A stretch of 64,000 nucleotides of DNA from Candidatus Cloacimonadales bacterium (GCA_963665815.1 OY762463.1:1408001-1472000); one strand, 5' to 3'; counted from the stretch's first letter, positions 28,001 to 52,599 are shown. Numbers and translations: made by a program. Notes: generated by a model not told the origin, from the sequence alone.

Positions 28001-30355
28001 TTATTTCAACATTATCATTTTGTTTATTAACGATGATTTTTCTGTTTTGACTTTATAGAAATATACTCCGGAACCTACACTTTTGTTGTTTTCGTCTGTC
28101 CCGTTCCATTCTATTGTGTGATGTCCGCTTTCCTTGTGCTCATTTACCAACTGCTTAACTTTCTGTCCTTTTATGTTATACACTTCAATGCAAGCATTTC
28201 CTTCTTCAGGAAGACTGTATGATATGGTTGTGGTTGGGTTAAACGGGTTAGGGTAGTTATAAGCAATTACCTTTGTGTCTTTAAAAGCTAAATCCTGATT
28301 GAAATTACCCACAGGCTGCCATTCATAACAGCCCATATCTACAGTACTGCCGTATGTTCTGGTGTTTCCTGCCAGATCAAGCAGTGGGAAATTACTGCCT
28401 GCTACTGCTCCGGCATCCACGCAGGGACTTGTTTCCTGCAATTTGTAATAGTCTGTGCTTGTGCTGTCTCCTCCGACAAACTCAGGCAAAACATCAATAT
28501 TGGTGTCTTCGTAAGTAAGTAGATGCTCGTTTTCTTTGGGTATTACCATAACTGATTGCTCTCCACCTAAAATCAGATTATTACTAATCGTGGAGGAGTT
28601 CTGGTGATCTACAGTACATATTGCTATTTCTCTGGAATCGTACATAGAATATGGATTGTAGAAAATATTATTATATACGTAAGAATTATTACCCACAATT
28701 TCAAACTTAACAAGCTGATCCTGAAAACTGATATAATTGTTGGCAAATGTATTATTCCTGACATATGTGTCACCATAAATAGAACCAATATACCCCACAG
28801 CCTGTGCGTTGTATGATATATTGTTTACTACAAGGTTGTTATCAAATACAACAAGACTGTCTCCAAACAGAACAAAAGCATTTTCATTGAGGGGGGCATA
28901 GCTTGTATTTCCATTGAATATACTGTTGGACACATAAACAGAGTCTGCTGTTACCCTTACTGCATTATCACAACATTCTATATGATACTCTGTTACCTGA
29001 TTACCGGTGAATTCGCAGCTATCTATGATTGCTTTACCAATACCATACATGTATAGTCCTGATTTGCTGTCTGTTGCCCTGCAATTCAGAATTTTCACAT
29101 TCCTTAGCTCAACATAATCGCAATCTTCAATCATTAAGCCAGTAATACTCCTGTCATAACAATTTTTTATGACAACATCCTTTAGTCTCACAGACTTACC
29201 ATTATCCCCCCGAAAAGTCAATCCTTCCCCGACAGGATTTTCTATTGTCAATCCGGATATTTCAATATCCTTGTATTCATACATTGCATACATAATACGT
29301 CTTTCCAATAAATAACCGCCAAGATAAGTGACATCTGAGCCTGCTCCGGCTAATCTGCAATGACTCTTTAATACAGGAGTATTAAATCTATCCAGAAACT
29401 GGAGCGAATAATCTCCGGCTGCAATATGTATAGTTTTAGGATTAAGACTGTCTGCTGCTATAAGTCTGCATGCATCTACTATTGAATACTTGGGATCATT
29501 GGATGTTAAACCGTTGTTATTGTCATCGCCATCCATGGATACATACAAATCTGCATTTACCGGTGTTATGTGCCCTCTGAGAATATCAAACTGCATGGGA
29601 TTTCCTGGGTTTGAAGAATAAAAGCTACTGTAGTTTGCATAATATCGGGATGGAACAGCTTCACTGAATTTATCAAGATAAATCATAGTTACAGTGTTGT
29701 AATCTCGCGGTATGGCATAATAATTAATATCCATACCTCCATACGCATAATTATTGTAAATACTGCATCTGTTGACTGAAGAAAAAATTATTTCTGAATT
29801 CATCTCAGGTTCATACTCCACCCCCCCCCCCTTCCATGCAAAGTTATCGTGAATATCAAGCCCGGATAACTCAATATCAATTTCTCCGGAGATAAATATT
29901 CCACCTCCGGCAAGCTCAACTCGGTTATCATATATTTCGCAATTGGTAATCTTCATATCACCATCGGCATTAATACTGATGCCACCACCCACAACACGAT
30001 CTTCTCCATAACCATTGGTAATTGTAAAACCTCTTATTTCTGCATTGTTTACCTGCTGTCCCCAGATTTCTATTACCTTGCCGACACCACAACCATTTAG
30101 TATGGTTTCTGCAATATAATGATCTTCTCCGGTTAGTGCTTCCATTGAATAAAGTTTTATTGATCTACCGTTAAAATTAAGATTTACTGCATAAAATCCA
30201 GGATATACAAGTACAATATCACCATCGGATGAGCTGTCTATTGCCTGCTGTATATCAGTAAAATCTCCGCTTCCATCGAGGTTTACAGTGTGGGTAGCAC
30301 TTATCAGAAGTATTGGTATCAATGTAACTATCAGTATTGCAAGCTGCTTTTTCAT
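28001..30355 (-). CDS. Secreted right-handed beta-helix protein with C-terminal FlgD-Ig/sorting-like domain (paralog 1)
   Basis: Signal peptide, DFTDIQQAID, GGGI repeats, SPCVDAG...DMGCYE, NYPNPFNP tail. Confidence 0.85.
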   Translation of the reverse strand: MKKQLAILIVTLIPILLISATHTVNLDGSGDFTDIQQAIDSSSDGDIVLVYPGFYAVNLNFNGRSIKLYSMEALTGEDHYIAETILNGCGVGKVIEIWGQQVNNAEIRGFTITNGYGEDRVVGGGISINADGDMKITNCEIYDNRVELAGGGIFISGEIDIELSGLDIHDNFAWKGGGVEYEPEMNSEIIFSSVNRCSIYNNYAYGGMDINYYAIPRDYNTVTMIYLDKFSEAVPSRYYANYSSFYSSNPGNPMQFDILRGHITPVNADLYVSMDGDDNNNGLTSNDPKYSIVDACRLIAADSLNPKTIHIAAGDYSLQFLDRFNTPVLKSHCRLAGAGSDVTYLGGYLLERRIMYAMYEYKDIEISGLTIENPVGEGLTFRGDNGKSVRLKDVVIKNCYDRSITGLMIEDCDYVELRNVKILNCRATDSKSGLYMYGIGKAIIDSCEFTGNQVTEYHIECCDNAVRVTADSVYVSNSIFNGNTSYAPLNENAFVLFGDSLVVFDNNLVVNNISYNAQAVGYIGSIYGDTYVRNNTFANNYISFQDQLVKFEIVGNNSYVYNNIFYNPYSMYDSREIAICTVDHQNSSTISNNLILGGEQSVMVIPKENEHLLTYEDTNIDVLPEFVGGDSTSTDYYKLQETSPCVDAGAVAGSNFPLLDLAGNTRTYGSTVDMGCYEWQPVGNFNQDLAFKDTKVIAYNYPNPFNPTTTISYSLPEEGNACIEVYNIKGQKVKQLVNEHKESGHHTIEWNGTDENNKSVGSGVYFYKVKTEKSSLINKMIMLK
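29821..29831 (-). repeat. G11 homopolymer in the coding strand of paralog 1
   Basis: Eleven consecutive C on the + strand, encoding K-G-G-G-V. Confidence 0.9.
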
Positions 30356-30645
30356 AGGTTTCCTTTAATATCTCACTCCATTCGCAAGGTCTTAAGACCA
30401 TTGCGAAGGTGTGAGATATATTTATTTATTGAAAAACACTCCATAGCGATTCGCAGAATGGGCATAGCATTTTCCAATTGGTTTTACACACCCTAAATCG
30501 AATAAGTTCGATAGGGTACGATATTTTCCAACCATTGCGGAGGTCTTAAGACCATTCGCAAGGGGAAAATACTATTTCAACATTATCATTTTGTTTATCA
30601 GCGATGATTTTTTGGTTTTGATTTTATAGAAATATACTCCGGAAC
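30273..30645. repeat. 373-bp junction repeat, copy 1 (gene 3' end + spacer with two REP-like hairpins + next gene 5' end)
   Basis: Identical by eye to 32844-33216; hairpins at 30368-30419 and 30522-30571 centred on GGTCTTAAGACC. Confidence 0.9.
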
Positions 30646-32926
30646 CTACGTTCTTGTTATTTTCATCTGTTCCGTTCCATTTTATTGTATGATGTCCGCT
30701 TTCCTTGTGCTCATTAATGAGCTGTTTAACTTTTTGACCCTTAATATTATACACTTCAATACAGACATTGCCTTCTTCCGGTAAACTATATGAAATTGTT
30801 GTGGTTGGGTTGAACGGGTTGGGGTAGTTATAAGCAATTACCTTGGTATCTCTAAAATCTAAATCCTGATTGAAATTACCTACTGGCTGCCACTCATAAC
30901 AACCCATGTCTACAGTACTGCCGTATGTTCTGGTGTTTCCTGCCAGATCAAGCAGTGGGAAATTACTGCCTGTTACAGATCCGGCATCTACACAGGGACT
31001 TGTTTCCGTAAGATAGTAATACTCTGCAGAAGTTGAATCTCCTCCGACAAACTCCGGCAAAACATCAATATTTGTGTCTTCAAAGACTATTAAGTCTGCG
31101 AAATCTTCTTGTATACAGACTACAGAGCTCTCCCCACCTCTGATAAGGTTATTATATAGCACAGCAGCATCGTTTGGGTTTGATAGATACACAATCAGTT
31201 CACTGGAGTCATACATTGAGTATGGATTATAGAAGATATTATTATATATTTGGGCATCTCCACCACGTACTGCAAATTGTACAAGTTGATCCTGAAAACT
31301 GATATAATTGTTGACAAATGTATTATTACGTACTATGGAAGTACCTTTTGCCGATCTTACATAACCAATGGGCTGAGCATTATAAGACATGTTATTAATT
31401 ACCAGATTATTCTCAAATATTGCCAGACTATCTCCCACAAAATTGTAAGCATTGACATTACCCGGAGCATAACTTGTATTACCATTGAAAATACTGTTTG
31501 ATACAATAACAGAGTCTGCCATTACTCTTACTGCATTGTCATAACATTCAACATGATTTTCTGTTACCTGATTACCGGTGAACTCGCAACTATCAATTAT
31601 TGCCAGTCCAACATCGTTCATGTAAATACCTGAACTCCTATGTGTTGCTGTACAACTTAAGATTTTCATATTTCTTAATTCTACTCTCTTACAATGAATC
31701 AAATATAGTGCTGAGAAATCATCAGCGTTGCAATTTTTGATTACAACATCATTGAACTTTATTTTTTTTCCACTGAATCCATGAAATGATATGCCTTTAC
31801 CTACAGGATTTTCTATTGTCAAACCGGATATTTCGATGTATTGATACTCATACATCGCATAGATTATCCGAGCATTTTCAAGGTACCCTCCAAGATAAGT
31901 GACATCTGAGCCTGCTCCGGCTAATCTACAGTGACTCTTTAATACCGGAGTATTAAATCTGTCCAGAAACTGGAGCGAATAATCTCCGGCTGCAATATGG
32001 ACAGTTTTTGGATTAAGACTGTCTGCTGCTATAAGCCTGCAGGCATCTACTATTGAATACTTTGGATCATCGGGTGAAAGTCCTGAGTTTGCATCATCTC
32101 CATCCATGGATATATACAAATCAGAATTTACAGGAGTTATGTGTCCTCTGAGAATATCAAACTGCATGGGATTACCCGTGTTTGAAGAGTAAAAACTCCA
32201 GTAATTTGCATAATATCGGGATGCTACTGCTTCACTGAATTTATCAAGATAAATCATAGTTACAGTGTTGTAATCTCGTGGTATGGCATAACAATTGATA
32301 TCCATACCACTGTAAGCAAGATTATTGTAAATACTGCATCTGTTGACTGAAGAGAAGATTATTTCTGAATTTATCTCAGGTTCGTACTCTACCCCCCCAC
32401 CCTTCCAGGCAAAGTTATCGTGAATATCAAGTCCGGCTAACTCAATATCTACTTCACCGGATATAAATATTCCCCCCCCGGCAAGAACAACTCGGTTATC
32501 ATAAATTTCGCAATTAGTAATCTTCATATCACCATAAGCCTTAATGCTGATACCCCCACCCACAACACGGTCTTCTCCGTAACCATTGGTAATTGTAAAA
32601 CCCCTTATTTCTGCATTGTTAACCTGCTGGTCCCAGATTTCTATTACCTTGCCGACACCACAGCCATTTAGTATGGTTTCTGCAATATAATGATCTTCTC
32701 CGGTTAGTGCTTCCATAGAGTAAAGCTTTATTGATCTACCGTTAAAATTGAGGTTTACAGCATAAAATCCCGGATATACAAGTACTATATCACCATCGGA
32801 TGAGCTGTCTATCGCCTGCTGTATATCGGTAAAATCTCCGCTGCCATCGAGGTTTACAGTGTGGGTAGCACTTATCAGAAGTATTGGTATCAATGTAACT
32901 ATCAGTATTGCAAGCTGCTTTTTCAT
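30572..32926 (-). CDS. Secreted beta-helix protein with FlgD-Ig/sorting-like tail (paralog 2)
   Basis: Same length (784 aa) and collinear with 28001-30355; offset 2571 bp. Confidence 0.85.
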   Translation of the reverse strand: MKKQLAILIVTLIPILLISATHTVNLDGSGDFTDIQQAIDSSSDGDIVLVYPGFYAVNLNFNGRSIKLYSMEALTGEDHYIAETILNGCGVGKVIEIWDQQVNNAEIRGFTITNGYGEDRVVGGGISIKAYGDMKITNCEIYDNRVVLAGGGIFISGEVDIELAGLDIHDNFAWKGGGVEYEPEINSEIIFSSVNRCSIYNNLAYSGMDINCYAIPRDYNTVTMIYLDKFSEAVASRYYANYWSFYSSNTGNPMQFDILRGHITPVNSDLYISMDGDDANSGLSPDDPKYSIVDACRLIAADSLNPKTVHIAAGDYSLQFLDRFNTPVLKSHCRLAGAGSDVTYLGGYLENARIIYAMYEYQYIEISGLTIENPVGKGISFHGFSGKKIKFNDVVIKNCNADDFSALYLIHCKRVELRNMKILSCTATHRSSGIYMNDVGLAIIDSCEFTGNQVTENHVECYDNAVRVMADSVIVSNSIFNGNTSYAPGNVNAYNFVGDSLAIFENNLVINNMSYNAQPIGYVRSAKGTSIVRNNTFVNNYISFQDQLVQFAVRGGDAQIYNNIFYNPYSMYDSSELIVYLSNPNDAAVLYNNLIRGGESSVVCIQEDFADLIVFEDTNIDVLPEFVGGDSTSAEYYYLTETSPCVDAGSVTGSNFPLLDLAGNTRTYGSTVDMGCYEWQPVGNFNQDLDFRDTKVIAYNYPNPFNPTTTISYSLPEEGNVCIEVYNIKGQKVKQLINEHKESGHHTIKWNGTDENNKNVGSGVYFYKIKTKKSSLINKMIMLK

Positions 32927-33216
32927 AGGTTTCCTTTAATATCTCACTCCATTCGCAAGGTCTTAAGACCATTGCGAAGGTGTGAGATATATTTATTTAT
33001 TGAAAAACACTCCATAGCGATTCGCAGAATGGGCATAGCATTTTCCAATTGGTTTTACACACCCTAAATCGAATAAGTTCGATAGGGTACGATATTTTCC
33101 AACCATTGCGGAGGTCTTAAGACCATTCGCAAGGGGAAAATACTATTTCAACATTATCATTTTGTTTATCAGCGATGATTTTTTGGTTTTGATTTTATAG
33201 AAATATACTCCGGAAC
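32844..33216. repeat. 373-bp junction repeat, copy 2
   Basis: Identical by eye to 30273-30645. Confidence 0.9.
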
Positions 33217-35683
33217 TAACGCTCTTGTTGTTTTCGTCTGTTCCGTTCCATTTTATTGTATGATGTCCGCTTTCTTTATGTTCATTTACAAGCTGTTTAA
33301 CTTTTTGACCTTTTATGTTGTACACTTCGATACAAACATTGCTTTCTTCAGGAAGACTGTATGATATGGTTGTGGTTGGGTTAAACGGGTTAGGGTAGTT
33401 CTTACAGGCAAAAGAATAAGCTTCCGGAGCTTCTTCTTCCTTATAATCATGCTCAACATAAGAAATTCTGACTCTCTGATGTTCAGGACTCAGTCTGATA
33501 TCCTTTTCCATATACTTTTTCTGTTCCGCATCATAAACTTGCAGATTCTCTGAGAAAACCTCTTCACGTTCTCCATACCATTTTACAATATCAATATTGG
33601 CATCATAAAGGTCATCTGTAACATATGCGAATACTGCAGCATCCTGACCATGAACAACAGAAGCACCAATACATTCACCATTGGCATATACAGCAATTTC
33701 CTGAGGAATATCATCCGGAGCGAACTCAAATACAAATGTATTATAATCAGCTTGTTCAGTATAGTCAAAGTAATTTAGATCCGTATCTGCCTCAATATTA
33801 TTGAAAACAGTAGTAACAACACTTCCACCACCTGTGGACACAAATCCTTCATCCCAGATGAATGACGCAGGATTTTCAGTTTCAACAACTATCATGTCAC
33901 CGTATTGCACACCATCATAATAATCCATATTTGCCACGCCTTCCCAGGTGATAATCATCTGAGAAAACAGACTGTCTCCTATAATTTCTACGTGTTTTTC
34001 GTAAGACCAATATTGACCATGAATACTCTTTAGCTGGTTGCCTAAAGTACCTCCAAAAGCTGCCGTTGGTGACGTAGATGATTCCGAACCATAATAGCAA
34101 ACCCAGGTTTCTACTTTACCAAATGGTATACTTACCGGTTCATCATTTCTTATGCATACCCCATGATAATTATTGATCGCTGCCCCGTTATCTATCTGTA
34201 CTTTATATCCTTTATATTGTTTCAGTATCTCGGAGTTATCGCTCCAATTTCCTTCATCATTTTCTGATGTTGCAATAGTCATATCCTCATCAGCATAATC
34301 TGGTGTCTGATAACTGAATTGATGAACAGTAAATGGATCGTCATCCTCCATAAAATCAGCAAAGAAACCATCTAACTGGTCATGGTTACCAATTGGGTCA
34401 ATAACAGGGAAACCTACCCAGAACCAGTTCTCGGTTTTAGGGTCATCCGTATCAAACTGGTAGTTAAGGCGTTTGTCTTCAAATTGTATTGCACCGATAT
34501 CTGTTGTAGTTCCGTCCTGCTGGATTTCAACTCCAATCAATGGAGATTTTCCTTCATCATCCCAGATCAGGGAATAATCATCATTATCAGGGTCTGCAAA
34601 CATCGGATTAGTTTCTACTGAAAGATTCGGGAACATTACTGATGAATAATATGGATCAAAGAAGTCACTTTCTATTGCTTCACAGACAGTATTACTAAAT
34701 ACAGTATTAGTTTGTACTCCGGTTGGATAATCAATATAGCAATTAGAAATGTTTGCTGTAAAGTTCCATGGATCTGTTGTATACCCCAGATATGCACCAT
34801 GATACTGATTATCAAAATAATGACCGTCAAGAATAGTACATTTATTCAGATTTAAAAAGCGTGTTTCTATTTCCGGACTAAACTCATTATAGTTATCATA
34901 CATCAAGACATTTTCCATAGTTACTGAGTTGGCTTTAATTGTACTGCATATATACCCTGTTAGATTCAAATCCTCAGCACTGTTGTTGTAAATGAAAGAG
35001 TTTCTTATTGTTACTCCTCCTGAGACATTCAGTACAGCAGAACCATACTGATAATCACCATCAGTGATTGACATGTTTTCCAATGTTATATTTGAACCTG
35101 TAACTTGTATTACCGGATTAGTCCCTACTCCTTTCAATATTGTTTTATCTGGTCCAGCACCTCGTAGTGTAACATTATTATTATATATATAGACAAATCC
35201 ATGAAATGTACCTTCAGGGACGTTAACTACACTGTTTGCGGGAGCATTAGCTATCATTGTCTGAACAGGACTGATAGAACCGATTCCTTCCTGATAAAAC
35301 TGAACAAGACATGGATCACCATAAAAATCGTTGTTCTGGTAGATTTGAAGGTAACAGCCTCCATTCCTTGAAACCGGATCTGAATTAGCCGATATATTAA
35401 ATGTAAAAGTGAAATACTGGACATTATTATAAGAGTGATAACTATAACTTCCAAGTGAAATCCAGGAAGGAAATGCAGCTCCACTGTTATGAATACCAAT
35501 AAATTGATTTGCAGTTAAATTTCCCCCGGTTACATATACATCGATATCAATTGATGTTGCTCCGAAACTTACATAATGTGGTCCGGGAACTTCTTGTTGA
35601 AATCCAGAATCAGCAAAATTGGTTGTCGAGAATAATCCACAAATTAGCAGATTAGCTAAAACTAAGAGAATATTTCTTTTCAT
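33143..35683 (-). CDS. Secreted protein: BACON-like N-domain, pectin-lyase-like beta-helix, FlgD-Ig/sorting-like tail
   Basis: Start moved to ATG 35683 after GAAGGAG; signal peptide; TLRGAGPDKTIL; NPMFADPDNDDY; NYPNPFNP tail nearly identical to the two paralogs. Confidence 0.8.
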   Translation of the reverse strand: MKRNILLVLANLLICGLFSTTNFADSGFQQEVPGPHYVSFGATSIDIDVYVTGGNLTANQFIGIHNSGAAFPSWISLGSYSYHSYNNVQYFTFTFNISANSDPVSRNGGCYLQIYQNNDFYGDPCLVQFYQEGIGSISPVQTMIANAPANSVVNVPEGTFHGFVYIYNNNVTLRGAGPDKTILKGVGTNPVIQVTGSNITLENMSITDGDYQYGSAVLNVSGGVTIRNSFIYNNSAEDLNLTGYICSTIKANSVTMENVLMYDNYNEFSPEIETRFLNLNKCTILDGHYFDNQYHGAYLGYTTDPWNFTANISNCYIDYPTGVQTNTVFSNTVCEAIESDFFDPYYSSVMFPNLSVETNPMFADPDNDDYSLIWDDEGKSPLIGVEIQQDGTTTDIGAIQFEDKRLNYQFDTDDPKTENWFWVGFPVIDPIGNHDQLDGFFADFMEDDDPFTVHQFSYQTPDYADEDMTIATSENDEGNWSDNSEILKQYKGYKVQIDNGAAINNYHGVCIRNDEPVSIPFGKVETWVCYYGSESSTSPTAAFGGTLGNQLKSIHGQYWSYEKHVEIIGDSLFSQMIITWEGVANMDYYDGVQYGDMIVVETENPASFIWDEGFVSTGGGSVVTTVFNNIEADTDLNYFDYTEQADYNTFVFEFAPDDIPQEIAVYANGECIGASVVHGQDAAVFAYVTDDLYDANIDIVKWYGEREEVFSENLQVYDAEQKKYMEKDIRLSPEHQRVRISYVEHDYKEEEAPEAYSFACKNYPNPFNPTTTISYSLPEESNVCIEVYNIKGQKVKQLVNEHKESGHHTIKWNGTDENNKSVSSGVYFYKIKTKKSSLINKMIMLK

Positions 35684-36094
35684 TCTTTCTCCTTCTGTGG
35701 AAATGAGAAAAAACTTGCACACAAATCATAATCCTGCAATAATGTATTCAGGAAATGGGTTTGTTGCGGTCTTCTTGCCGGAAGCTATTGTTTGCATTCT
35801 CATTTCCGTTTTTTTGATACTATAATATTGTCATTTTGAAATTGAGTATTTTGGAAACCAGATTACTACATTAAGAGAACCTTACACAGGGAAAAATACA
35901 TACTTATAAAGAAACACAACTACATATCTGCAAGAATTCAAAATATTGTCTAAGAGCTTTTATCTGTTGAAACTGTAGATGAATTTCATCGAAGCTCTTT
36001 AAATTCTACACCGATATAAAACTTTCCATTTGATCAATTGAGAACAAATCTGGGGGAGGCATGTCAAGGTATTTTTGCGTATTTTGGAATCCCC

Positions 36095-36347
36095 CCGTTT
36101 TTTCTTGAAAATCTGACTTCAAGAAAATTGGAAGGATTTTTAGCAGACATTTCTTAGAAAAATGCACTATTCATTTTCTTTGGTGCCAAAGAAAACGAAA
36201 CAAAAGAAAATTGAGAAGTTGATGAAATTGTAAATTTCATCGAAAAGCACTCTTTTTAAAATGTATTTCCAGTAAACTGGAACCATGAATTTTCCCTAAA
36301 ATCCTTCCAAGGCTTCAGGATTTCTTAACGGTTAAATTTATTATACA
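36095..36347. repeat. MITE/REP-like dispersed element
   Basis: TTCATTTTCTTTG..CCAAAG.AAACGAA.CAAAAGAAA plus a 40-bp block (36292-36331) identical to 44051-44090; imperfect inverted copy of that block at about 36095-36143. Confidence 0.6.
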
Positions 36348-36805
36348 GTAAAAAAAGAGAAAATACTATCTTCAATGCAAAACAATCATACTTAGTTCAA
36401 AGCTATTACATTGATTCATATTTTCCACTGATTTAATGTTTCAAAACTTTTATTTATAATAAGTTATACATACATTGTATTTGGGTTTCGGGGGGATGCA
36501 TGATTTTTTTCAATAATGAGGATACTTTGACATTTATTGATTAGTTATTCATTCACCCACTAATTATGAATCCTCCTCCCCCACAATTTTCTCTGCTTTC
36601 ACACAATTAATTTCTACTCTCTTAACAAACTCTGATATATCTTTTATGTAGGAAGTTCTGTAATTATGACCAAAAGTTTTCTTTAATTCAATATTTTAAG
36701 AACGAATACACATAATGGAGAAAAGTAAAAAATTGTCTTGACGTAATTTAAGGGTTTCAAGTCCTATCCTCCATCTTGAAGACACTAAGAAAAAAGGAAT
36801 TTAGC

Positions 36806-39070: not shown

Positions 39071-39165
39071 ATCGAATACCAACCTTGCTGCAATGAACTC
39101 GAGAGTAACAGAACATTTGACCTTGGTTTTATAACTAAGGTCTCACAAGATTCCTTCTCAAAACA

Positions 39166-39196
39166 AAACAGTCACCCGTCAGTGACTGTTTTTTTT
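39166..39196. terminator. Bidirectional terminator-like hairpin
   Basis: AAACAGTCAC-ccgtca-GTGACTGTTT with T/A runs on both sides. Confidence 0.75.
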
Positions 39197-39220
39197 ATTG
39201 TGAAAATACCAGTGTTTCAT
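39179..39220 (-). CDS. Micro-ORF MKHWYFHNKKNSH (truncated-element variant of MKHWYFP)
   Basis: GAGGAG-6nt-ATG AAA CAC TGG TAT TTT, then homology ends and the frame runs into the terminator hairpin. Confidence 0.35.
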   Translation of the reverse strand: MKHWYFHNKKNSH

Positions 39221-39592
39221 ACTGTACTCCTCACTTTTAGGTGGTTATAAATTGCCTTTCTTGTTTTTGAAGTTGAACTCCCTTCATTTTCTTTAAATGA
39301 CTGTAAAAAGATACTTTCTCATTAACGGACTAGTTGATGAAATTAGGAAATTTCATCGAATCCGATTAGAACAAGGTATCCGGTTTTTGAAATTCACACA
39401 CAAATGCTGTTAAGCGTTACCAATTATACATTATCGGGTATTTTCCACCCACACAACAAAATAACAGTGCAATTGTTAATAGAGTTTCAGGAATTTGTCA
39501 ATAAATAAGTTTGTGGATTATGGGACTTTTGTCAGAATTGTCAAAGTGTGTTGTTATAAGTGGTAAATAAAATTTGTCACAATTCTGATTTG
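39203..39592 (-). repeat. Long intergenic element, copy 1 (truncated, no downstream cargo)
   Basis: Blocks shared with 41003-41589 and 43655-44288. Confidence 0.9.
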
Positions 39593-39594
39593 GA

Positions 39595-40028
39595 TCTAGT
39601 ATGTGCCTTATACCATAACTATGAAGAAACTAATGCATCGACACTTGATACAGGTATTGCATCAGAACCTGTATAATTTTGGTCTGTACTGATATCCCAA
39701 GTTTTGTTGTTTATATATTCATCAGTAGCATTAACAAATATTGTGTTCCCATTTGCATTACCTGTTGATGCGTTTATAATTAATTGGCTACACATTGAAG
39801 CAGTAAAATAATTAAACGTCCCAGTCCAAAAATATGAGTCATTTATAACTTTGATTTGAGTATGCCCATTCACATTTAGATCAAAGATTGGTACCTGCAA
39901 ATTAATCATGAAATTCATTGTAACTAGCCAACCTAGATTCCACAGTGCTTCTTCAAAAAGATCAGTGATTACACTTTCAAAGATAACTGGTAGATCAATA
40001 GCATTATTACAGAAATTATTGATCGCAT
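39595..40028 (-). pseudogene. Decayed secreted zinc metalloprotease (metzincin/matrixin-like)
   Basis: GGAGG-ATG at 40028 gives signal-like MRSIISVIMLLIYQLSLKV*; the body is in another frame; 39603-39638 reads MH*FLHSYGIRH, i.e. HExxHxxGxxH with TAG at the Glu position. Confidence 0.65.
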
Positions 40029-40999
40029 AGTACCTCCCTTTCAAGATCACGCAACAATTCCCTCATTTTTTCAAACATTTCTTCGTAATTATTATATTTT
40101 GTAACATATTCATCCAGTGCTTCTCCCATAGTTGCATAAATAACTCCTTCGGGATAAATTGGAGGATAGATTTTCGGTTTCCCTCCCGAGATATCATATA
40201 TTGCTGTGCTATTGGAAATATAGGAATCATTAATGAAAACTTCAGAGTTTTCGTTTGGTGATACATCAGTTGTTTTGACGAAGCGATAATCGTAGTTAAT
40301 AAGATATATTTCACCTATCTCAAATTTTCTCAAATCGTTTTGCATAACTATATCAATTTCAACTTCATGGTTTTCTAACAAATTAAATGGTGTTTCCAGT
40401 ACTTTAAACTTATTATGAAGTGTTCTTCCATACTTATCACTTTCAGTGTAATTTTCAAGCTGAACTAAAGCCCAATAATCATATCGTTGTAGAACAGACA
40501 ACATAATGTAATTATTATTGCTTTTAATGAATCTCCTCCATAATTTTCCTCTTATGCTTGAAATCTTGGGCAGATTTCTAAGAATATTTCTTCCACGTTG
40601 TTGCATTTCAATTATTGTGTTTGGGTTCAACATCAATGATCTAAGCTCATCAGCACTATATAAATTTGGTCGAAGTGCTCCTTCATAGTTTGAGTTAATG
40701 TAATTCATTTCTGCCCAGAATTTTTTATGATAGATCTTAATCTTTATATCATAATAAACAATTTTCATTAGGGTTCTGTCATCAAAATTATCTAAGTATT
40801 TTTCAGTTATGCTATTTAGATTTTTCCCCGGTTCCCACTGCTTGTGTATCTCCGTCATAGCTTTTCTGAAGAATTCCATATACTCTCTGACCATTGGGAC
40901 ATCTTCCCCGGTAACGCTGGAGTATTTAAGTTTTATTTCATCGGCACACATACTTGCTGTAACAAGTGTAATTAATGCCAGTATTATTAGTTTTTTCAT
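40016..40999 (-). CDS. Secreted hypothetical protein
   Basis: Signal peptide MKKLIILALITLVTASMCA; AAGGA RBS; TTGACA-16-TAAAAT upstream. Confidence 0.8.
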   Translation of the reverse strand: MKKLIILALITLVTASMCADEIKLKYSSVTGEDVPMVREYMEFFRKAMTEIHKQWEPGKNLNSITEKYLDNFDDRTLMKIVYYDIKIKIYHKKFWAEMNYINSNYEGALRPNLYSADELRSLMLNPNTIIEMQQRGRNILRNLPKISSIRGKLWRRFIKSNNNYIMLSVLQRYDYWALVQLENYTESDKYGRTLHNKFKVLETPFNLLENHEVEIDIVMQNDLRKFEIGEIYLINYDYRFVKTTDVSPNENSEVFINDSYISNSTAIYDISGGKPKIYPPIYPEGVIYATMGEALDEYVTKYNNYEEMFEKMRELLRDLEREVLCDQ

Positions 41000-41017
41000 A
41001 CTTTTCCTTTTTTCTTG

Positions 41018-41045
41018 ATTTTAGTTATTTCGTTTTACTTGTCAA
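41018..41045 (-). promoter_or_regulatory. Sigma70-type promoter for the cargo gene
   Basis: TTGACA-16-TAAAAT; equivalent site in copy 3 is TTGACA-16-TATAAT. Confidence 0.6.
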
Positions 41046-41091
41046 ATTTTACAGTTTTGTTGTTAACTAATTCTTTGTACTATCTGCCTGC

Positions 41092-41115
41092 CTACGGAAA
41101 ATACCAGTGTTTCAT
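41092..41115 (-). CDS. Micro-ORF MKHWYFP
   Basis: GAGGAG-CACAGT-ATG AAA CAC TGG TAT TTT CCG TAG. Confidence 0.5.
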   Translation of the reverse strand: MKHWYFP

Positions 41116-41489
41116 ACTGTGCTCCTCACTTTTGGGTGTTATAAATCGCCTTTCTTGTTTTTAAAATTGAACTACCTTTTCGACTCTGCATACAATGTGC
41201 AAAACAGGTTTTTGTCGTCTTCTTTGTACAAAGAATATTCCCTTTCCCGACTTTATCGGGACTCAGGGAGCTTTTATATTGATATTTACCAATAAGTTAA
41301 GTTGATTGAGCCCCGAAGAATCGGAAAAATTTACTATACAATGATAAAGAAACATTATGCAGAAATTTCTTAATTAGAAGGGCATTTTAATAAGGTATCC
41401 GGTTTTGAAATTCACACACAAATGCTGTTAAGCTTTACCAATTCTAGATTATCGTGTATTTTCCACCCACACAACAAAATAACAATTTA

Positions 41490-41518
41490 ATTTTAAAGAG
41501 GTTTCAGGAATTTGTCAA
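41490..41518 (-). promoter_or_regulatory. Sigma70-type promoter at the head of the repeated element
   Basis: TTGACA-17-TAAAAT; TTGACA is kept in all three copies, the -10 is weaker in the other two. Confidence 0.5.
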
Positions 41519-41622
41519 TAAATAAGTTTGTGGATTATGGGACTTTTGTCAGAATTGTCAAAGTATGTTGTTATAAGTGGTAAATAAAAATCGTAAAAAG
41601 AATTTTGAAGATCCGAGAAGCT

Positions 41623-42522
41623 CTATGCTATCACCCTGTCTCCATCCGAAAGCCTGTAGAAGTACACTCCGGATGCAACAGATTTGTTATTCTCGTCCTC
41701 TCCGTTCCAGATAACTTTGTTTTCTCCTTCTTCTGCTTCCAGCTCAAAGGTCTTAACTTTTTGCCCCTTTATGTTGTATATACAGATTTCCGGATCAGAA
41801 ATATCTTTTGTGAGGCTGTATGATATGGACGTTGTTGGATTAAAAGGATTGGGGTAGTTGGAAAGTATGTGATTTCCTTTCAGCATTACTCTGAAATCAT
41901 TATCAATATCCATACATATAGTATCAAAAAAAGTATACTGATGACCACTTCCTCCTCTTTGAACTTTCGGAGAAAGCTCTACATCTGGTTGATTTGCCCC
42001 AAGATTATTGTGTTCATTGACAAAACTTGGACTAGATATATCATAATGGCTAATATCTTGATTCATTGCCCATACAGGAATCCCATAGTATTCGTAGCAA
42101 TATTCTACAATTCCATCACATCTTATATCTGTAACTTCGTCAGGTTGTATATAGTAGAAATTTGGGTTTGAATCATCGTAATTCAATGCATCTCCTGCAG
42201 TATAGGAGATATCAGTGAAATCCAAAAGGTCTTCAGCAAAAAGGCATATTGAAGCCCTATGAGAGATGTCCATATTTGAATTATTGCAGTGACATATGTA
42301 ATCTTGCCCATCTAAAAACCCACTCCAATCAACTATTTCTACTTCACAAAAATATCCCCCAATATGCACAATTTCTGTAAGCCCTACATAAATTCCAGCA
42401 TGATCCAAATTATTTAGAAAGCCACCTTCTCTATATACTGCATCAGCAATAGTTTCATTATCAGTTTGGCAATAAACAATAGTAAATTGTATCAGTATAA
42501 GTAATATCATCAATATTCTCAT
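41623..42522 (-). CDS. Secreted permuted papain-like (NlpC/P60 YaeF/YiiX-like) enzyme with a C-terminally clipped FlgD-Ig/sorting-like tail
   Basis: Signal peptide; DHAGIY (His) before RCDGIVEYCY (Cys); NYPNPFNP tail that ends at RVIA* without the KM-x-x-LK end seen in the other three tails. Confidence 0.7.
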   Translation of the reverse strand: MRILMILLILIQFTIVYCQTDNETIADAVYREGGFLNNLDHAGIYVGLTEIVHIGGYFCEVEIVDWSGFLDGQDYICHCNNSNMDISHRASICLFAEDLLDFTDISYTAGDALNYDDSNPNFYYIQPDEVTDIRCDGIVEYCYEYYGIPVWAMNQDISHYDISSPSFVNEHNNLGANQPDVELSPKVQRGGSGHQYTFFDTICMDIDNDFRVMLKGNHILSNYPNPFNPTTSISYSLTKDISDPEICIYNIKGQKVKTFELEAEEGENKVIWNGEDENNKSVASGVYFYRLSDGDRVIA

Positions 42523-43652
42523 TTCACACCTCTTACTTTGTAACCTCTGTGCTTAGTTAATATTTTCTTCATTGAAGCTAAGTATGATTCGTTTTCCTCT
42601 AAAAATCTCAGAACATTTTTCCCCATTTTCTGCAATTCTTCATTGTTTGTACTATTAATCAACTTTAATATTTTTTCTTTATCATAAGGGAGTTTACCCT
42701 TCATCAAAGCAATTAACCCTTGTATTTGATAATATTCATTACTTTTGCATTCAATCATAGCCTCAATTGTATTAATTGAGTTAAATAGATTGTATGGAAA
42801 GCTTTCTCTTGCCATTCTTGGAAACTTGTCTGCATTTTTAAAAGCTTTCTCATATACTCCTAAGCATGCAATAACAGCTTCAGGATGATTCATATCTACA
42901 AGCTTATGTCTGATTGCTGATAAAATTTTCTGATTTTCTGTGTTTTCACTTATCTCCATTAGTTTTCCAATGTACTTAATATCAAAATTTGGAACAAGAC
43001 ACATAATAGCAGATTGCAGAATTTTCTCATCATATTCATTTGGATTGTTTAATACAGGTGCAACATAATTTTCCAAATCAGGATGTTTTGCTCTTCTGAG
43101 TTTATGAAGTAAAGATGCTGATATTTTTTTTTTGTTATTAGATTTAAGCAAATTTATAATCTCTTCAAGATTATCATTAACATTACTGTCTAACTTAGAA
43201 ACAGCATATTTCCTTAGTCTCTTATCAACTTCAACATCTTTAGCAATACTTAGAATAATATCTTGATAATCTACATATAGCCGACTGTCTTTTTTTATGA
43301 ATTTCTTTGCTGTATCAATTAAAAATGCCCTGTATTTGGGTACATATGACTTATTCTTAAGAAGCTCAAGAATAAGTTCTTTATTCTTATCATCATCCAG
43401 CTTATCATTCAACTGAACCAATACCAGCATTACTCCTGATTCAAAATTCTTCTCATCATATAATACAAGCTCGTAGGCAAATTCAAATAGTTCCTCAGCA
43501 TTGAGAAAGCTCACGTATCCTTCATTATCCTTGTAATGATTAATGTGTTCCATCTTTTTGATTTTTTCCAGATCAAGGCTATATTCATTTTCTATAGAAT
43601 AAATGCCTGTTATTGCAAATGTTATAATCAACATTATCATAATTTTTTTCAT
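42519..43652 (-). CDS. Secreted helical (HEAT-like) hypothetical protein
   Basis: Signal peptide; repeated amphipathic helices (LRKYAVSKL, ILQSAIMCL); ATGA overlap with the next gene. Confidence 0.75.
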   Translation of the reverse strand: MKKIMIMLIITFAITGIYSIENEYSLDLEKIKKMEHINHYKDNEGYVSFLNAEELFEFAYELVLYDEKNFESGVMLVLVQLNDKLDDDKNKELILELLKNKSYVPKYRAFLIDTAKKFIKKDSRLYVDYQDIILSIAKDVEVDKRLRKYAVSKLDSNVNDNLEEIINLLKSNNKKKISASLLHKLRRAKHPDLENYVAPVLNNPNEYDEKILQSAIMCLVPNFDIKYIGKLMEISENTENQKILSAIRHKLVDMNHPEAVIACLGVYEKAFKNADKFPRMARESFPYNLFNSINTIEAMIECKSNEYYQIQGLIALMKGKLPYDKEKILKLINSTNNEELQKMGKNVLRFLEENESYLASMKKILTKHRGYKVRGVK

Positions 43653-43671
43653 TCTTTTTCCTTTTTTCTTA

Positions 43672-43699
43672 ATTATAGTTAATTCGTTTTGCTTGTCAA
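43672..43699 (-). promoter_or_regulatory. Consensus sigma70 promoter for the cargo gene
   Basis: TTGACA-16-TATAAT, 19 bp upstream of the ATG. Confidence 0.7.
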
Positions 43700-43745
43700 A
43701 TTTTACAGTTATGTTGTTAATAAATTCTTTGTTCTATCTGCCTGC

Positions 43746-43769
43746 TTATGGAAAATACCAGTGTTTCAT
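43746..43769 (-). CDS. Micro-ORF MKHWYFP
   Basis: GAGGAG-TACAGT-ATG AAA CAC TGG TAT TTT CCA TAA. Confidence 0.5.
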   Translation of the reverse strand: MKHWYFP

Positions 43770-44285
43770 ACTGTACTCCTCACTTTTATGGGGTTATAAA
43801 TTGCCTTTCTTGTTTTTGAAGTTGAGCTACCTTCATTTTCTTTAAGTGACTATAAAAAGATACTTTCTCATAAACTGACTAGTTGATGAAATTAGGAAAT
43901 TTCATCGAATCCGATTAGAATAAAGCAGTATCAATCTATTAGCAAATACATTAAATATCCCTTCATTTTCTTTGAATATCCAAAGTAAACGAAGCAAAAG
44001 AAATGACATCTTTATCAAAAAGTATTTACAGCAAGCTGTAACCGTAAATCTTCCCTAAAATCCTTCCAAGGCTTCAGGATTTCTTAACGGAAAAATTTAC
44101 TATACAATGATAAAGAAACATGATGCAGAAATTTCTTGATTAGAGGGCATTTTAATAAGGTATCCGGTTTTTGAAATTCACACACAAATGCTGTTAAGCG
44201 TTACCAATTCTACATTATCGGGTATTTTCCACCCACACATCAAAATAACAATGCAATTGTTAATAGGGTTTCAGGAATTTGTCAA

Positions 44286-44316
44286 TAAAAAAACGCCCAT
44301 CGCAATGACAGGCGTC
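44286..44316 (-). terminator. Intrinsic terminator of the transporter operon
   Basis: Minus strand GACGCCTGT-cattgcg-ATGGGCGTT followed by a T run. Confidence 0.7.
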
Positions 44317-44392
44317 TTTATAATGATTGGCAAAATCTTGGACCGTCGTCCAATGTTATATCGTTGGATTCCGGTTTTGCTTTAGATAAAAA

Positions 44393-49357: not shown

Positions 49358-49831
49358 TTATTTTTTCAGTAGAAGACATACTGCCGTTGCAGTAATTCCT
49401 TCTTCGGATCCTGAGATCCCCATTTTTTCCTCAGTAGTTGCTTTAACCGATACATTACTGACATCAGTTTCAAGATCAGCAGCAATGTTTTCTCTCATTG
49501 AATCAATAAACGGTCTCATCTTTGGTCTCTGTGCACAAATCGTAGAATCAATATTTCCTATTTTATATCCTTTCTCATTAACAATCCGATTCGCTTCTCT
49601 CAGTAAAATTCTGCTGTCAATATCCTTGAAGTCAGCATCAGAATCCGGAAAAAAAGAACCAATATCTCCCAATGCAAGAGCTCCAAACAGCGCATCAACA
49701 ATTGCATGAATCAAAACATCTGCATCAGAATGCCCTTTTAGACCTTTTTCAAAAGGAATCTGAACACCTCCGAGAATTAGAGCACGTCCCTCAACTAATT
49801 GATGTACATCGTATCCATATCCTATTCGCAT
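49358..49831 (-). CDS. ispF: 2-C-methyl-D-erythritol 2,4-cyclodiphosphate synthase
   Basis: [32 protein letters not shown]. Confidence 0.97.
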
Positions 49832-52599
49832 CAGTCCACCGTTATTGATTTGGAAACATTCTTTGGAACATCAGGATGCACACCATGATCTTCAACAGAA
49901 AGCTTATCAAGATATTCCATCTTTCTTATACTCATTCGAAGTGCCAGACGCTGGAGTACAACCGTTGAAGAAAAAGATGTTAACAGTGAATCCCCTGTTT
50001 TAGGAAGAGGAATATATCCCCATCCATAGTACTTTGAAGAATCCGGATTCAAGCTGGCATTTTCCATCAGCTTGTCATTTTCTTCGGCTATGACATATGT
50101 ATCAGCACCTCTGATTTTGTGTGTATTTATCTGTGAAATCGTAAGATTGACATCTCTGTCTTCCGGTCCGGTGACATAAAGCAAAGGATAATTCCTGTAA
50201 AGAGGATTGAAGAAATCGTATCTTCTGATAATATCCTTGAATACTCTCGTTGCAGCAGGAGAAAGATTAAACGGAAATGTTCTGGTGAAAATATAGGAAC
50301 TTAAAACCTTGATAATCTCCTGTGTATCTTCCTGAGATAAATCATACAAGTCTGCATTTCTCTCTAGAGTATCAATAGTCTTGTTAAAATATTTCAGCAT
50401 AGATTTAATACTCAGTAGACCAAAAACCGTATTTTTACCAAGAATTGTGTTAGGACCATGCTTGAATTCGGAGGCTTCTCCACCCTCGGTATGATTCAGT
50501 ACTGTCTCTCGAATCTTCAGAGCCCCTTCTTTGGCTACACCACTGAGTTTTGTTGCCAGAATATGCATGGAAGGTTCCATATATATCTTGTTTGCAATCT
50601 CATCAATCTTATCTTTTGTTGTTTCAATTGTCTCTTTTATGAGAAGAGGAATCTGAAGAAGTTTCTTATATCTTCTGTCTATATCCCTGGCAAATGCATT
50701 GATCATTTCTTCTGACTTGCCATTCTTCTTCATGTGATCCATTTTCATTTCAGCAGCTTTTATTGCCAGATAATAGAACAATGTCAGCTGATTAACGAAA
50801 CTTTTTGTCGCCGGAACTGCAATCTCAGGTCCACAGAGTATCGGAATGGACACATCTGATTTCTCCTGACCAAGCGTTGAGTTCATGTTATTAACAAGCA
50901 CAATCTTCTTTATGTTCTTACCGAGATTATCAATATCGTTAAAAATATCTATCAGATCTTTTGTTTCACCACTTTGTGACACACCAATTATTACATCATT
51001 GTTTCTCAATGAGTTTGAATACTGCCCTCTGAAATCTCCTGGAAGTATTGGAATTATTTTGATTCCGGCTATTTCATTGAAGAATACGGCTGCGACTTTC
51101 GTTGCGTTAAAAGAAGTTCCACATGCAATAGTGTATATATTTCTCTCATTATCATTGGTGTTACTCAACAATTCCATGAAGTTTTCAATTTTCGTGTCGA
51201 ATTCAGTTACATCCAGTTTTTCAGTAATTGAATCAAGTGCTTTTGCTGTCAGAAATCTCTTTTTATCAAAATGCGATCCTATCAGCTCAATGTATGTATT
51301 CATTTCACTGGAAAAGAAGTATTTCTTTTCAAAATCCTCATACACAACCACGTCGTAAATAGTCTTATAATCTTCCTGAATACTTTTATAGAATACTGAA
51401 CTCTCTTCAGAGTTAATAAACTCGTTAAAATGTTGGAGCTGTTCATCAAATGTTTCGGACTGCTTGATTTTTTTATCAAGATCTTTCATGTACTCCATCA
51501 AGTTAATTTTATCGATAAGATTGAGCATTCTACGCCCGGTATTTGACCCCCCAAGGAATATCTTCACAAGCTTACCTGTGGATTCTGTTTCGTTATCAAT
51601 CTCCTGATCCATGAAATAATTGTATTTTGGCAGCAGTTCAGTATCTTCTGCCCTGAGTTTTGATCTTACTGCATCACGGAAAATCTTCTGTCCTTTTTTG
51701 TATATGATATCCTTCTGATTCAGTCTTTTTATTCTGGCATCTTTATAAGCATATATTTTGTAGAAATCAGCAGTATACTCTACAAATTCTCCCTCTCTTA
51801 AGTTTACAAGATATTTCGTAAATCTCAGCACGGCTGTTAAATCAGAAGAAGCCAGAGAAAACTTGTTTCCGTCTATTTCGCCCACACCAAAATAAAGACT
51901 GCTTCCGGCTTTTATAGCATATTGATATTCTGTTACAGGATCTGTTATTACTGCGGCAAATGATCCGGTTGTTTTATTTATTGCTTTAGTAATAGCTTTT
52001 TTCATGCATTCTGACCTGATAGCAAAATCTGAGCTTTGTTTTGAAGAATAATTCCTTAACTCAATCTCAAAATAATGTTCTACGGTATGAACAAGCATTT
52101 CACCATCGTTATCCGAAAGCACATCGTGACCTTCTGATATCAAAAATGTCTTTAATTCTCTTGTATTGGTAATATTACCATTATGCGCCCCGTAAATATG
52201 AGTCTTACATTTTACTTCATGCGGCTGCGAATTCTTTTTGTCTACAGCTCCAAATGTAGCCCATCTGACCTGGCCACAAAAAATCTTTCCAGCTTTTTCT
52301 TTTATACCGAGAGTTTCAACTAAAGTACTTGGAGCTCCTACATCTTTGAGAAGAGTAGTATTCTTCTTATCATCCTGAAAAATTGCACCGGTGGAATCAT
52401 ATCCCCGATACTCCAATGCTTTCAACAGCTTTGAAGCGTATTTTCCCAGATGAATACTGTGTTCTGCCAAAGTCATTCCCAGTACACCGCATCCAACGCC
52501 AATTATCGGTATCTTAAATTTAATTTCCTTATCTGAATATTTAGCACATATCTTCTCAGCAATATTTCCTGCTTTTTTAATAAGATTTTTATTTATCAT
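49831..52599 (-). CDS. glmS: Long GlmS-like glutamine amidotransferase (GATase-2 plus two SIS domains, with insertions)
   Basis: [70 protein letters not shown]. Confidence 0.75.

Follow-up and report, generated by a model that had tools for sequence, protein, structure and literature searches.

A Cloacimonadales array of leader-linked partner and enzyme genes: probable, partly decayed inhibitor cassettes exchanged by homologous recombination

Several bacterial systems pair a secreted enzyme with a protein encoded beside it. In the KLIKK-peptidase/potempin system of Tannerella forsythia, as set out in the available parts of two reports (PMC9890683, PMC4404884), bicistronic clusters encode an exported partner whose stop codon overlaps the start of a secreted peptidase gene, and unrelated catalytic domains are carried on nearly identical type IX secretion system (T9SS) C-terminal domains (CTD). 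The potempins have very similar signal peptides, unrelated mature parts, and occur also as orphan partner open reading frames (ORF); they are lipoprotein β-barrels of 98-132 residues and proven inhibitors (same reports). Polymorphic toxin systems, according to the accessible portions of two papers (PMC3482391, PMC9424270), join a constant trafficking part to a variable enzyme with an adjacent partner, and HEAT repeats are a listed immunity fold. Here we analyze a 64,000-nucleotide (nt) stretch of the genome of a Candidatus Cloacimonadales bacterium (GCA_963665815.1 OY762463.1:1408001-1472000; hereafter the window), in which three copies of a long leader alternate with two unrelated gene pairs, each encoding a signal-peptide protein and a secreted enzyme or its remnant. 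This array probably consists of partly decayed enzyme/inhibitor (immunity-like) cassettes that are swapped by homologous recombination.

The window belongs to a single-contig 3.96-Mb genome (G000), which we compared with the sole other genome of the genus examined (G001); positions without prefix are window coordinates, whereas those prefixed G000:C1 refer to the whole contig. A first-pass annotation, made from the window alone, had reported three related non-coding elements in the same orientation alternating with two-gene cargos, in which a signal-peptide gene (signal peptides are assigned by eye) overlaps the start of a secreted hydrolase-like gene. The three elements are indeed there, with common blocks 89-96% identical over 83-206 nt, well above what chance would give, and the gene overlaps measure 4 nt (genes of 377 and 299 amino acids (aa)) and 13 nt (327-aa gene and remnant). 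An ATGA overlap is also found in a third G000 cargo and its G001 homologue. All array cargo reads on the minus strand, along which the order is transporter terminator, leader E3, 377-aa gene, 299-aa gene, tail, leader E2, 327-aa gene, metzincin-like remnant, tail, leader E1, and EF-G terminator (Table 1). A module runs from a leader through a signal-peptide partner gene and a secreted enzyme gene, which overlaps it and carries a common T9SS-type CTD, to a conserved tail. This anatomy corrects the earlier description in three respects. Stretches 41522-41622 and 39509-39572 (∼64-100 nt), taken for parts of the non-coding elements, are post-CTD tail and lie outside the leader. The element without cargo exists, but reading on the minus strand makes it the copy at 39202-39508, next to the EF-G terminator (39165-39192). 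Finally, of the two enzyme genes said to be cut short, the remnant is deleted up to the tail, whereas the 299-aa enzyme retains an intact catalytic domain and lacks only ∼8 CTD residues.

Comparison with G001 bears out the proposal that a constant scaffold carries interchangeable cargo. At the EF-G locus of G001, the same flanks and leader are followed by a 310-aa gene and an internally deleted 150-aa gene, with the same CTD and tail. This pair is homologous (65% at the aa level) to the third G000 cargo at 2262747, the second gene of which is frameshifted with a stop in an NCHSYAW-like motif. The 377+299-aa pair sits instead at a different G001 locus, followed by a tail, a leader, a 320-aa gene, and a 142-aa remnant. 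Cargo is neither fixed nor syntenic in this relative, and the leader is not confined to one locus. Between the two genomes the 377+299-aa pair shows seven mismatches in ∼1780 nt of cargo (99.6% identity), flanked by seven mismatches in the 170-nt 3′ block of the leader and, on the other side, by 43 over ∼450 nt comprising CTD, tail, and next leader (∼90%), and four neighbouring core genes are 79-93% identical. Because near-identical cargo lies between divergent arms, a recent interspecies transfer with crossovers in the arms is indicated. As judged from the alignment, the right crossover is near the CTD start. A second apparent breakpoint is inside the partner gene, since the first 123 nt of the 327- and 320-aa genes agree at 121 positions, with divergence thereafter; their products share the first 41 aa but are 34% identical overall, and the N terminus of P0008 is nearly the same. 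The suggested recombination between the repeats thus agrees with the mismatch pattern on the leader side, but the second arm is the enzyme CTD plus tail. The array CTD is 86% identical over 210 nt to that of the third G000 cargo and 89% over 160 nt to that of the G001 150-aa gene, whereas other CTDs are 67-72% identical over long stretches.

One cargo site could be compared in the filled and empty states. The site G000:C1:2262207-2264995 is filled in G000 and empty in G001, and its insert is flanked by a ∼34-nt terminator duplication, single in G001, with short matches at both junctions. Misassembly was considered and rejected. Short-read contigs from run X1 cover 39518-41264 and 41698-43780 and show 0 differences there; the gene lesions are therefore not assembly errors, and G001 independently holds an enzyme-tail-leader-partner junction. 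No listed X1 contig bridges a whole repeat, and the module order is supported rather than proven. Runs X4 and X5 show the G001-type arrangement, possibly as G001's own source, and were left out as independent evidence.

A dedicated recombinase accompanying the element, which the first-pass annotation had suggested looking for, adjoins no leader copy, either in searches of G000 or among the ORFs around the G001 copies. G000 encodes four tyrosine recombinases (PF00589), two Y1 transposases, and one DDE fragment, all at least 85 kb from any leader and with flanks unlike it; the nearest PF00589 match lies ∼200 kb from any leader in an unrelated context. Sequence comparison revealed no inverted repeat pair joining module ends, and a flanking duplication is seen at one (∼34 nt) and absent at four of the five insertions inspected, on which grounds a transposon reading was rejected. 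Because neither a mobility enzyme nor terminal inverted repeats were found, homologous recombination via the arms appears to be the simplest exchange route. New sites may be founded through T-run microhomology or by a trans-acting enzyme. The two Y1-transposase genes (L164 and L165; G000:C1:2133689-2134177 and 3509383-3510015), presumably RAYT-like, are flanked by short repeated palindromes unlike the leader.

The leader, which forms the left arm, has two fixed blocks, a 5′ one and a 3′ one that reaches the partner ATG, with a variable middle between them, and carries three σ70-like promoters. In E3, the 5′ block begins at a −35-like box (44285), and the 3′ block holds a ribosome-binding site and a 12/12 σ70-like promoter (43699-43672) ending 20 nt before the 377-aa ATG. 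Five of the six best promoter matches (11-12 of 12) sit in the repeats and are oriented toward cargo; since no structured RNA was detected either, we view the leader as a promoter scaffold or mosaic. The conserved long leader of the earlier description is shared, but is not a structured 5′ RNA, and a riboswitch was rejected as well (no Rfam match at E≤1; fold z −0.83). Its middle is made of dispersed G000 repeats that are found before all kinds of genes (64 clusters), and shorter copies appear to have arisen by deletion between short direct repeats.

Complete leaders number five in G000 and three in G001, and each of the eight is followed by partner and enzyme cargo or by nothing, never by housekeeping genes. 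One G000 leader without cargo lies at G000:C1:1756229, a site rearranged in G001, so that filled and empty states cannot be compared there. All eight begin with the same 20 nt after a T-run, at four unrelated chromosomal sites and at the tail junction, and their right ends differ. Leader DNA matched in two of 61 genomes, and the exact leader start in two of 232 genomes of the phylum; 27 other phylum genomes have start matches with 1-2 mismatches only, and the six of those checked do not extend as leader. No leader copies were found in JGI metagenomes, and a phage origin was dismissed because the leader motif was not found in viral contigs. Cassette GC content is 29-36%, versus 40-41% in core genes, and the titles of loci bearing related genes agree with the phylum Cloacimonadota.

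The 299-aa enzyme had been annotated as a permuted papain-like amidase. The permuted order holds, as the His precedes the Cys and a conserved Tyr lies 28 residues before the Cys (27 in BcPPNE), and all three residues are invariant in 9/9 aligned homologues (H22, Y88, and C116 of the 186-aa domain). When the enzyme model, with a predicted local distance difference test (pLDDT) value of 59, was compared with 48,161 chains, the best three were BcPPNE (3kw0), YiiX (2if6), and PLAAT4 (7zot); these matches (VIA; Z 7.4, 7.4, and 7.3; root-mean-square deviation 3.1-4.1; 97-131 aligned) are below the Z 8 caution line. Foldseek with this model gave no match at E≤0.001, and a PDB sequence search with the enzyme profile gave only dockerin matches, from other domains of the alignment. 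BcPPNE, YiiX, PLAAT4, and Tox-Act1 have the permuted His-before-Cys order and conserved Tyr in common with the 299-aa enzyme, as far as the available parts of their descriptions go (PMC3142127, PMC12994826). According to the same sources, the substrates of permuted NlpC/P60 members are lipids or acyl-amides. One of these enzymes has been proven to be an antibacterial phospholipase that works in the periplasm and comes with an immunity protein (PMC12994826). A lipid hydrolase is for this reason as likely as an amidase.

The CTD of this enzyme ends DRVIA, ∼8 residues short of a homologue at L083 (ending TRKMALIK). CTDs in G000 usually end in a hydrophobic residue followed by Lys, and two G001 modules stop at the same short position. 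In Porphyromonas, T9SS export is blocked when the last CTD residues are lost, according to the accessible part of one study (PMC11285876), so the 299-aa enzyme may stay periplasmic, held by its partner. The CTD profile matches 177 of 3088 called G000 ORFs, at least one being a true FlgD. T9SS-type export is plausible in G000 because SprA and two PorV matches are present.

The 377-aa protein has no Pfam or NCBIfam match. Its model is all-helical, with armadillo/alphaRep matches at E 1e-3 or weaker, and the atlas assigned it to HEAT clusters (0.92), recognition being under the tool's mark. A G022 match to its family (E 1e-4, an 850-aa ORF of another type) was discarded as spurious. Of 88 GTDB loci that have this enzyme, the best 80 were used to count pairing; they include a 98% copy of the query and related loci that are not independent. 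Of the 75 with a callable enzyme ORF, 60 have a HEAT partner, directly upstream in 42 and fused at the enzyme N terminus in 18. A six-frame check found the partner at 11 of the other 20 loci, giving 71/80, across phyla; five of the nine loci without partner lie within 900 nt of the locus end. As a control, the partner profile matched one of 34 downstream genes, and among the 3088 G000 ORFs it scored strongly for the 377-aa gene only, two others being weak. Co-folding of the 377- and 299-aa proteins, a check proposed at the outset, scored 0.89, versus 0.00 for the best of three controls; the mark used is reached by 116/157 solved and 2/215 mismatched pairs and is roughly valid for the alignments used here. 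The runs agree in at least 84% of contacts (140-162 contacts; partner pLDDT at least 88), and the modelled interface covers the catalytic face and includes His41 and the loops around Tyr107 and just before Cys135. For this one pair, the model supports a partner that binds over the catalytic face of the enzyme. Two variants of the pair were seen elsewhere. In Firmicutes (L071, L073-L075, L089, and L141), a ∼390-aa exported HEAT protein goes with a stand-alone enzyme of ∼205-235 aa that has no CTD, and in G004 (L044:6356-8695) a 779-aa protein made of two tandem HEAT partner copies, with no enzyme after it, resembles a poly-immunity protein.

The metzincin-like remnant, which starts at 40028, has two frameshifts and a stop replacing the Glu in HExxHxxGxxH, and is deleted from just past the motif. 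Its pieces gave no Pfam match, profile matching was weak (E 0.5-2.7), and the genes after 327-family homologues in G030 and G016 match PF00413 at 8e-5 and 7e-4, below cut-off. The name metzincin-like is tentative; it is taken from the motif and the neighbours of 327-family genes, with weak profile support. A third partner family, of 312 aa, has no relative among 596 metagenome candidates and no usable atlas match, and a protein search returned only three matches, none named.

Partners and enzymes differ in persistence. In leader-linked modules, 6/6 partners are uninterrupted and 0/6 enzymes full-length (five independent modules). In other Cloacimonadota, what follows a 377-family gene is a full enzyme in G060 and a ∼75-codon enzyme stub in G005 and G006; no such enzyme follows it in G004, G007, and G156, and two G002 pieces of the family are at contig ends. 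G004, G005, G006, G156, G044, and G038 retain partners next to enzyme stubs or as tandem orphan runs, and orphan runs occur also in G184 and G002. Several 327-family copies form such runs, and the three partner families adjoin one another in G002, G030, and G184. Given this asymmetry, a protective role is favoured over that of a pure chaperone. In G156 (L041:3700-7928, L144, and L159), signal-peptide proteins of the 377-aa, 327-aa, and other families form arrays, in which a 70-90-nt repeat spanning ribosome-binding site and signal peptide, 81-93% identical across two contigs, precedes unrelated partner genes.

These findings suggest the following model. Each cassette would be self-expressing. 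Its enzyme gene would specify a secreted hydrolase with a T9SS-type CTD, and the gene directly upstream a Sec-exported partner, which would bind this enzyme and most likely block it, so that the cell's own envelope is guarded. An orphaned partner would protect from the same enzyme made by neighbours. The leader, sometimes with the first partner codons, would serve as left arm and the CTD and tail as right arm, so that incoming DNA from a relative could replace one pair by another through ordinary homologous recombination in the arms, and modules could join head to tail. More rarely, new sites would be seeded by the fixed left end of the leader in T-rich tracts, often terminator tails. We infer inhibition, an antibacterial role, RecA-type exchange, expression, and the secretion route, and also an inhibitor/immunity rather than chaperone role of the partner. 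Exchange without a dedicated recombinase looks like an undescribed way of trading attack-and-defence genes; if this model is true, no integrase is needed because the secretion tag doubles as a recombination arm.

Several observations weigh against swapped enzyme/inhibitor cassettes. Only two genomes carry the leader, so that the case for exchange is one pairwise comparison, without direction. By analogy with Porphyromonas, the array may be dead on the enzyme side, as no enzyme has a complete CTD, and partners decay too, being cut short in G007 and G181 and interrupted by an early stop in a leaderless G001 copy. Promoter-like sites show no overall enrichment in the region (34 versus 29.0 ± 5.6). 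The partner profile was iterated on the same neighbours, its first pass with Cloacimonadota seeds giving 20 at E<1e-5. Coupling is thinner for the other two families. Three of 16 inspected 327-family copies in 10 genomes (three weak matches, L156-L158, left out) precede an HExxHxxGxxH gene, two of them at locus ends, and of eight further 312-family matches, one precedes an NCHxYAW protein, one another secreted gene, and six are alone. Last, the 18 loci with partner and enzyme in one polypeptide would suit a pro-domain or an aid to folding no less than an immunity protein.

A bolder version of the cassette model, held tentatively and judged somewhat unlikely, makes the array a T9SS-coupled interbacterial weapon and defence of inverted polarity, with a variable N-terminal enzyme, a constant C-terminal secretion tag, and an exported immunity protein encoded upstream. 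It would spread as promoter-bearing cassettes: an unknown enzyme would insert the fixed left end into terminator T-tracts and so found landing pads, cargo would then be exchanged by recombination through leader and tag, and cells would retain the immunity but lose the enzyme. It is unlikely, in our assessment, that the same cassettes and exchange involve a partner that the enzyme needs, be it a trans-acting pro-domain, a folding chaperone, or a substrate-presenting subunit. The 18 fusions, in which a linker joins HEAT and enzyme parts, do leave room for a pro-domain, the partner is hardly ever missing where the enzyme is found (71/80 loci), and the large modelled interface would also suit a pro-domain. 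A pure chaperone, however, is useless without client, yet partners are intact beside dead enzymes (6/6 versus 0/6), and mixed-family orphan tandem runs occur in other genomes.

The constant start of all 8/8 leader copies after a T-run, together with their variable right ends and the ∼34-nt duplication at one site, could instead mark the recognition end of a non-autonomous element that takes along variable lengths of cargo and is mobilised into T-rich targets in trans, by a one-ended, rolling-circle, or HUH-type transposase or recombinase. This is decidedly unlikely: terminal inverted repeats are absent, the duplication is confined to 1/5 insertions, a subterminal hairpin is not conserved, and the G000 transposases and recombinases are remote and differently flanked. 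Moreover, T-run microhomology accounts for the junction, which thus needs no enzyme. We consider it very unlikely that there is no selected system at all, and that the promoter and CTD of one foreign operon were spread by duplication, miniature inverted-repeat transposable element (MITE) activity, and gene conversion, leaving neutral debris in a repeat-rich genome. In support of this reading, no enzyme has escaped damage, the leader at G000:C1:1756229 is empty and another is truncated, the middle of the leader consists of generic repeat DNA present also before housekeeping genes, G000 is rich in recombining CTD-gene paralogues, and the leader is limited to one genus. Against debris, the same leader precedes three partner families and at least three enzymes, all unrelated within their kind, 99.6%-identical cargo moved recently between species, lesions lie in enzymes and not in partners, and G156 places a short common 5′ repeat of its own in front of unrelated partner genes. 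An integron- or rAID-like array was rejected, as there is no heading tyrosine recombinase, promoters lie inside the repeats, and the RNA searches gave nothing (no Rfam match, fold z −0.83).

Table 1. Features of the array, in window coordinates, from the left to the right junction along the minus strand
Feature	Position	Strand	Basis or remark
Terminator-like hairpin, upstream transporter operon	44287..44319	-	T-run = left array junction; read by eye, absent from terminator-scan output; same junction in G001
Leader E3, full-length type, 640 nt	43653..44292	-	95% identical to two G001 copies
377-aa signal-peptide HEAT-like α-solenoid, predicted partner	42519..43652	-	Model, gene coupling, co-fold
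299-aa enzyme ORF	41623..42522	-	ORF call
Signal peptide and predicted permuted papain-like NlpC/P60 domain of 299-aa enzyme	41871..42522	-	His41, Tyr107, Cys135
T9SS type-A-like/FlgD-Ig CTD without last strand, right homology arm	41623..41870	-	PF13860, PF18962, TIGR04183 over cut-off
Conserved post-CTD tail, part of right arm	41522..41622	-	11/12 promoter-like site 41561-41534
Leader E2	41000..41525	-	Middle = second dispersed repeat family; promoter-like sites 41518, 41045
327-aa signal-peptide protein, unnamed family	40016..40999	-	Some kin precede metzincin-type peptidases in other Cloacimonadota
Metzincin-like pseudogene	39573..40028	-	Two frameshifts, stop in zinc motif 39603-39635, deletion to tail
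Distal tail part	39509..39572	-	Promoter-like site 39544-39517
Leader E1, internally deleted, ends before proximal promoter and ribosome-binding site, no cargo	39202..39508	-	Followed by EF-G terminator
Terminator of convergent EF-G gene, right array boundary	39165..39192	+	Terminator scan

The repeats that supply the leader middle have a wider distribution. A MITE-like repeat of ∼375-450 nt with short terminal inverted repeats, part of which makes up the leader middle, is present at window 36085-36500 (minus strand) and in 13 other full G000 copies. In each of the 14 full copies, the end lies 16-23 nt upstream of a TTGAC (−35-like) box, a motif that occurs in 5.9% of random intergenic 31-nt windows, and 13/14 have 10-18-nt direct repeats; the repeat therefore looks promoter-targeted. 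No longer element with such ends was found in G000, and the repeat is present in two of eight family genomes. A second dispersed palindromic family, 70-160 nt long (window 41170-41335 and ∼28 other G000 sites), replaces the E2 middle. On the other side of EF-G, window 28001-36500 and G000:C1:2322233-2330588 hold paralogous arrays of three CTD genes (846/840, 784, and 784 aa). The MITE copy of the window and that of the other array agree in their right flank and differ in their left one, so the array seems copied through the MITE. At the position of window 28001-36500, G001 has other cargo, a 1280-aa gingipain-like gene (by eye) and a 527-aa CTD gene, and these CTD arrays are a second case of leader-mediated cargo change. 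Elsewhere in the window (49831-52599), a 922-aa GlmS-like ORF (by eye) has long insertions, the usual GlmS size being ∼610 aa.

If the cassette reading is true, it would show how secreted enzyme-inhibitor arrays of the KLIKK/potempin type can get built and refreshed, and, should the enzymes attack competitors, it would place T9SS-type export in the context of interbacterial conflict, in a phylum that is uncultured. The analysis further brings out three partner families that lack characterisation. One of these is a HEAT protein, coupled in many phyla to a permuted NlpC/P60 family that has no annotation, and this pair is found in the culturable Tumebacillus (L071) and Paenibacillus (L073) as well.

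Set against known systems, the array has partial counterparts. Integrons contain promoterless cassettes with a short palindromic recombination site, and mobile insertion cassettes and MITE-borne passengers are passenger genes without transposase at several sites. The modules differ from mobile insertion cassettes in having no terminal inverted repeats, no constant right end, and no regular target duplication. With rAID-1 arrays, in the available part of their description (bioRxiv 10.1101/471110), they share co-oriented variable defence genes between repeated intergenic DNA and a lower GC content. Unlike those arrays and integrons, no tyrosine recombinase heads this one, its units have promoters and enzyme genes, and its homology arms are 300-640 nt rather than short attC-like sites. 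Polymorphic toxin and polyimmunity loci, as far as the accessible sources describe them, resemble it in the adjacent cognate partner (71/80 loci here), orphan partner arrays, and strain-level turnover by recombination. Their constant trafficking part is N-terminal and their variable toxin C-terminal; here this polarity is reversed, with a constant C-terminal tag behind a variable N-terminal enzyme, and the partner gene comes first in a unit that has a promoter to itself. The first-pass annotation did not recognise a described system. We likewise found no published description of this one in a search largely outside subscription papers (gene tables of PMC3482391 may list the families), but a close functional analogue is known. 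The KLIKK-peptidase/potempin system is the closest working analogue, with the same exported partner ORF overlapping the start of a CTD-bearing enzyme, near-identical CTDs on unrelated enzymes, conserved partner N termini and signal peptides, and orphan partners. Partners here are, however, 310-377 aa long, one is a HEAT solenoid, and they have no family match (lipobox judged by eye); CTDs end DRVIA or GRIIA instead of KLIKK, with the last strand missing; and the available parts of the KLIKK/potempin reports describe no long common leader and no swap of cargo between loci or species. Because partner size, fold, and CTD terminal motif all differ, the array is not a member of the KLIKK/potempin system, but shares its layout.

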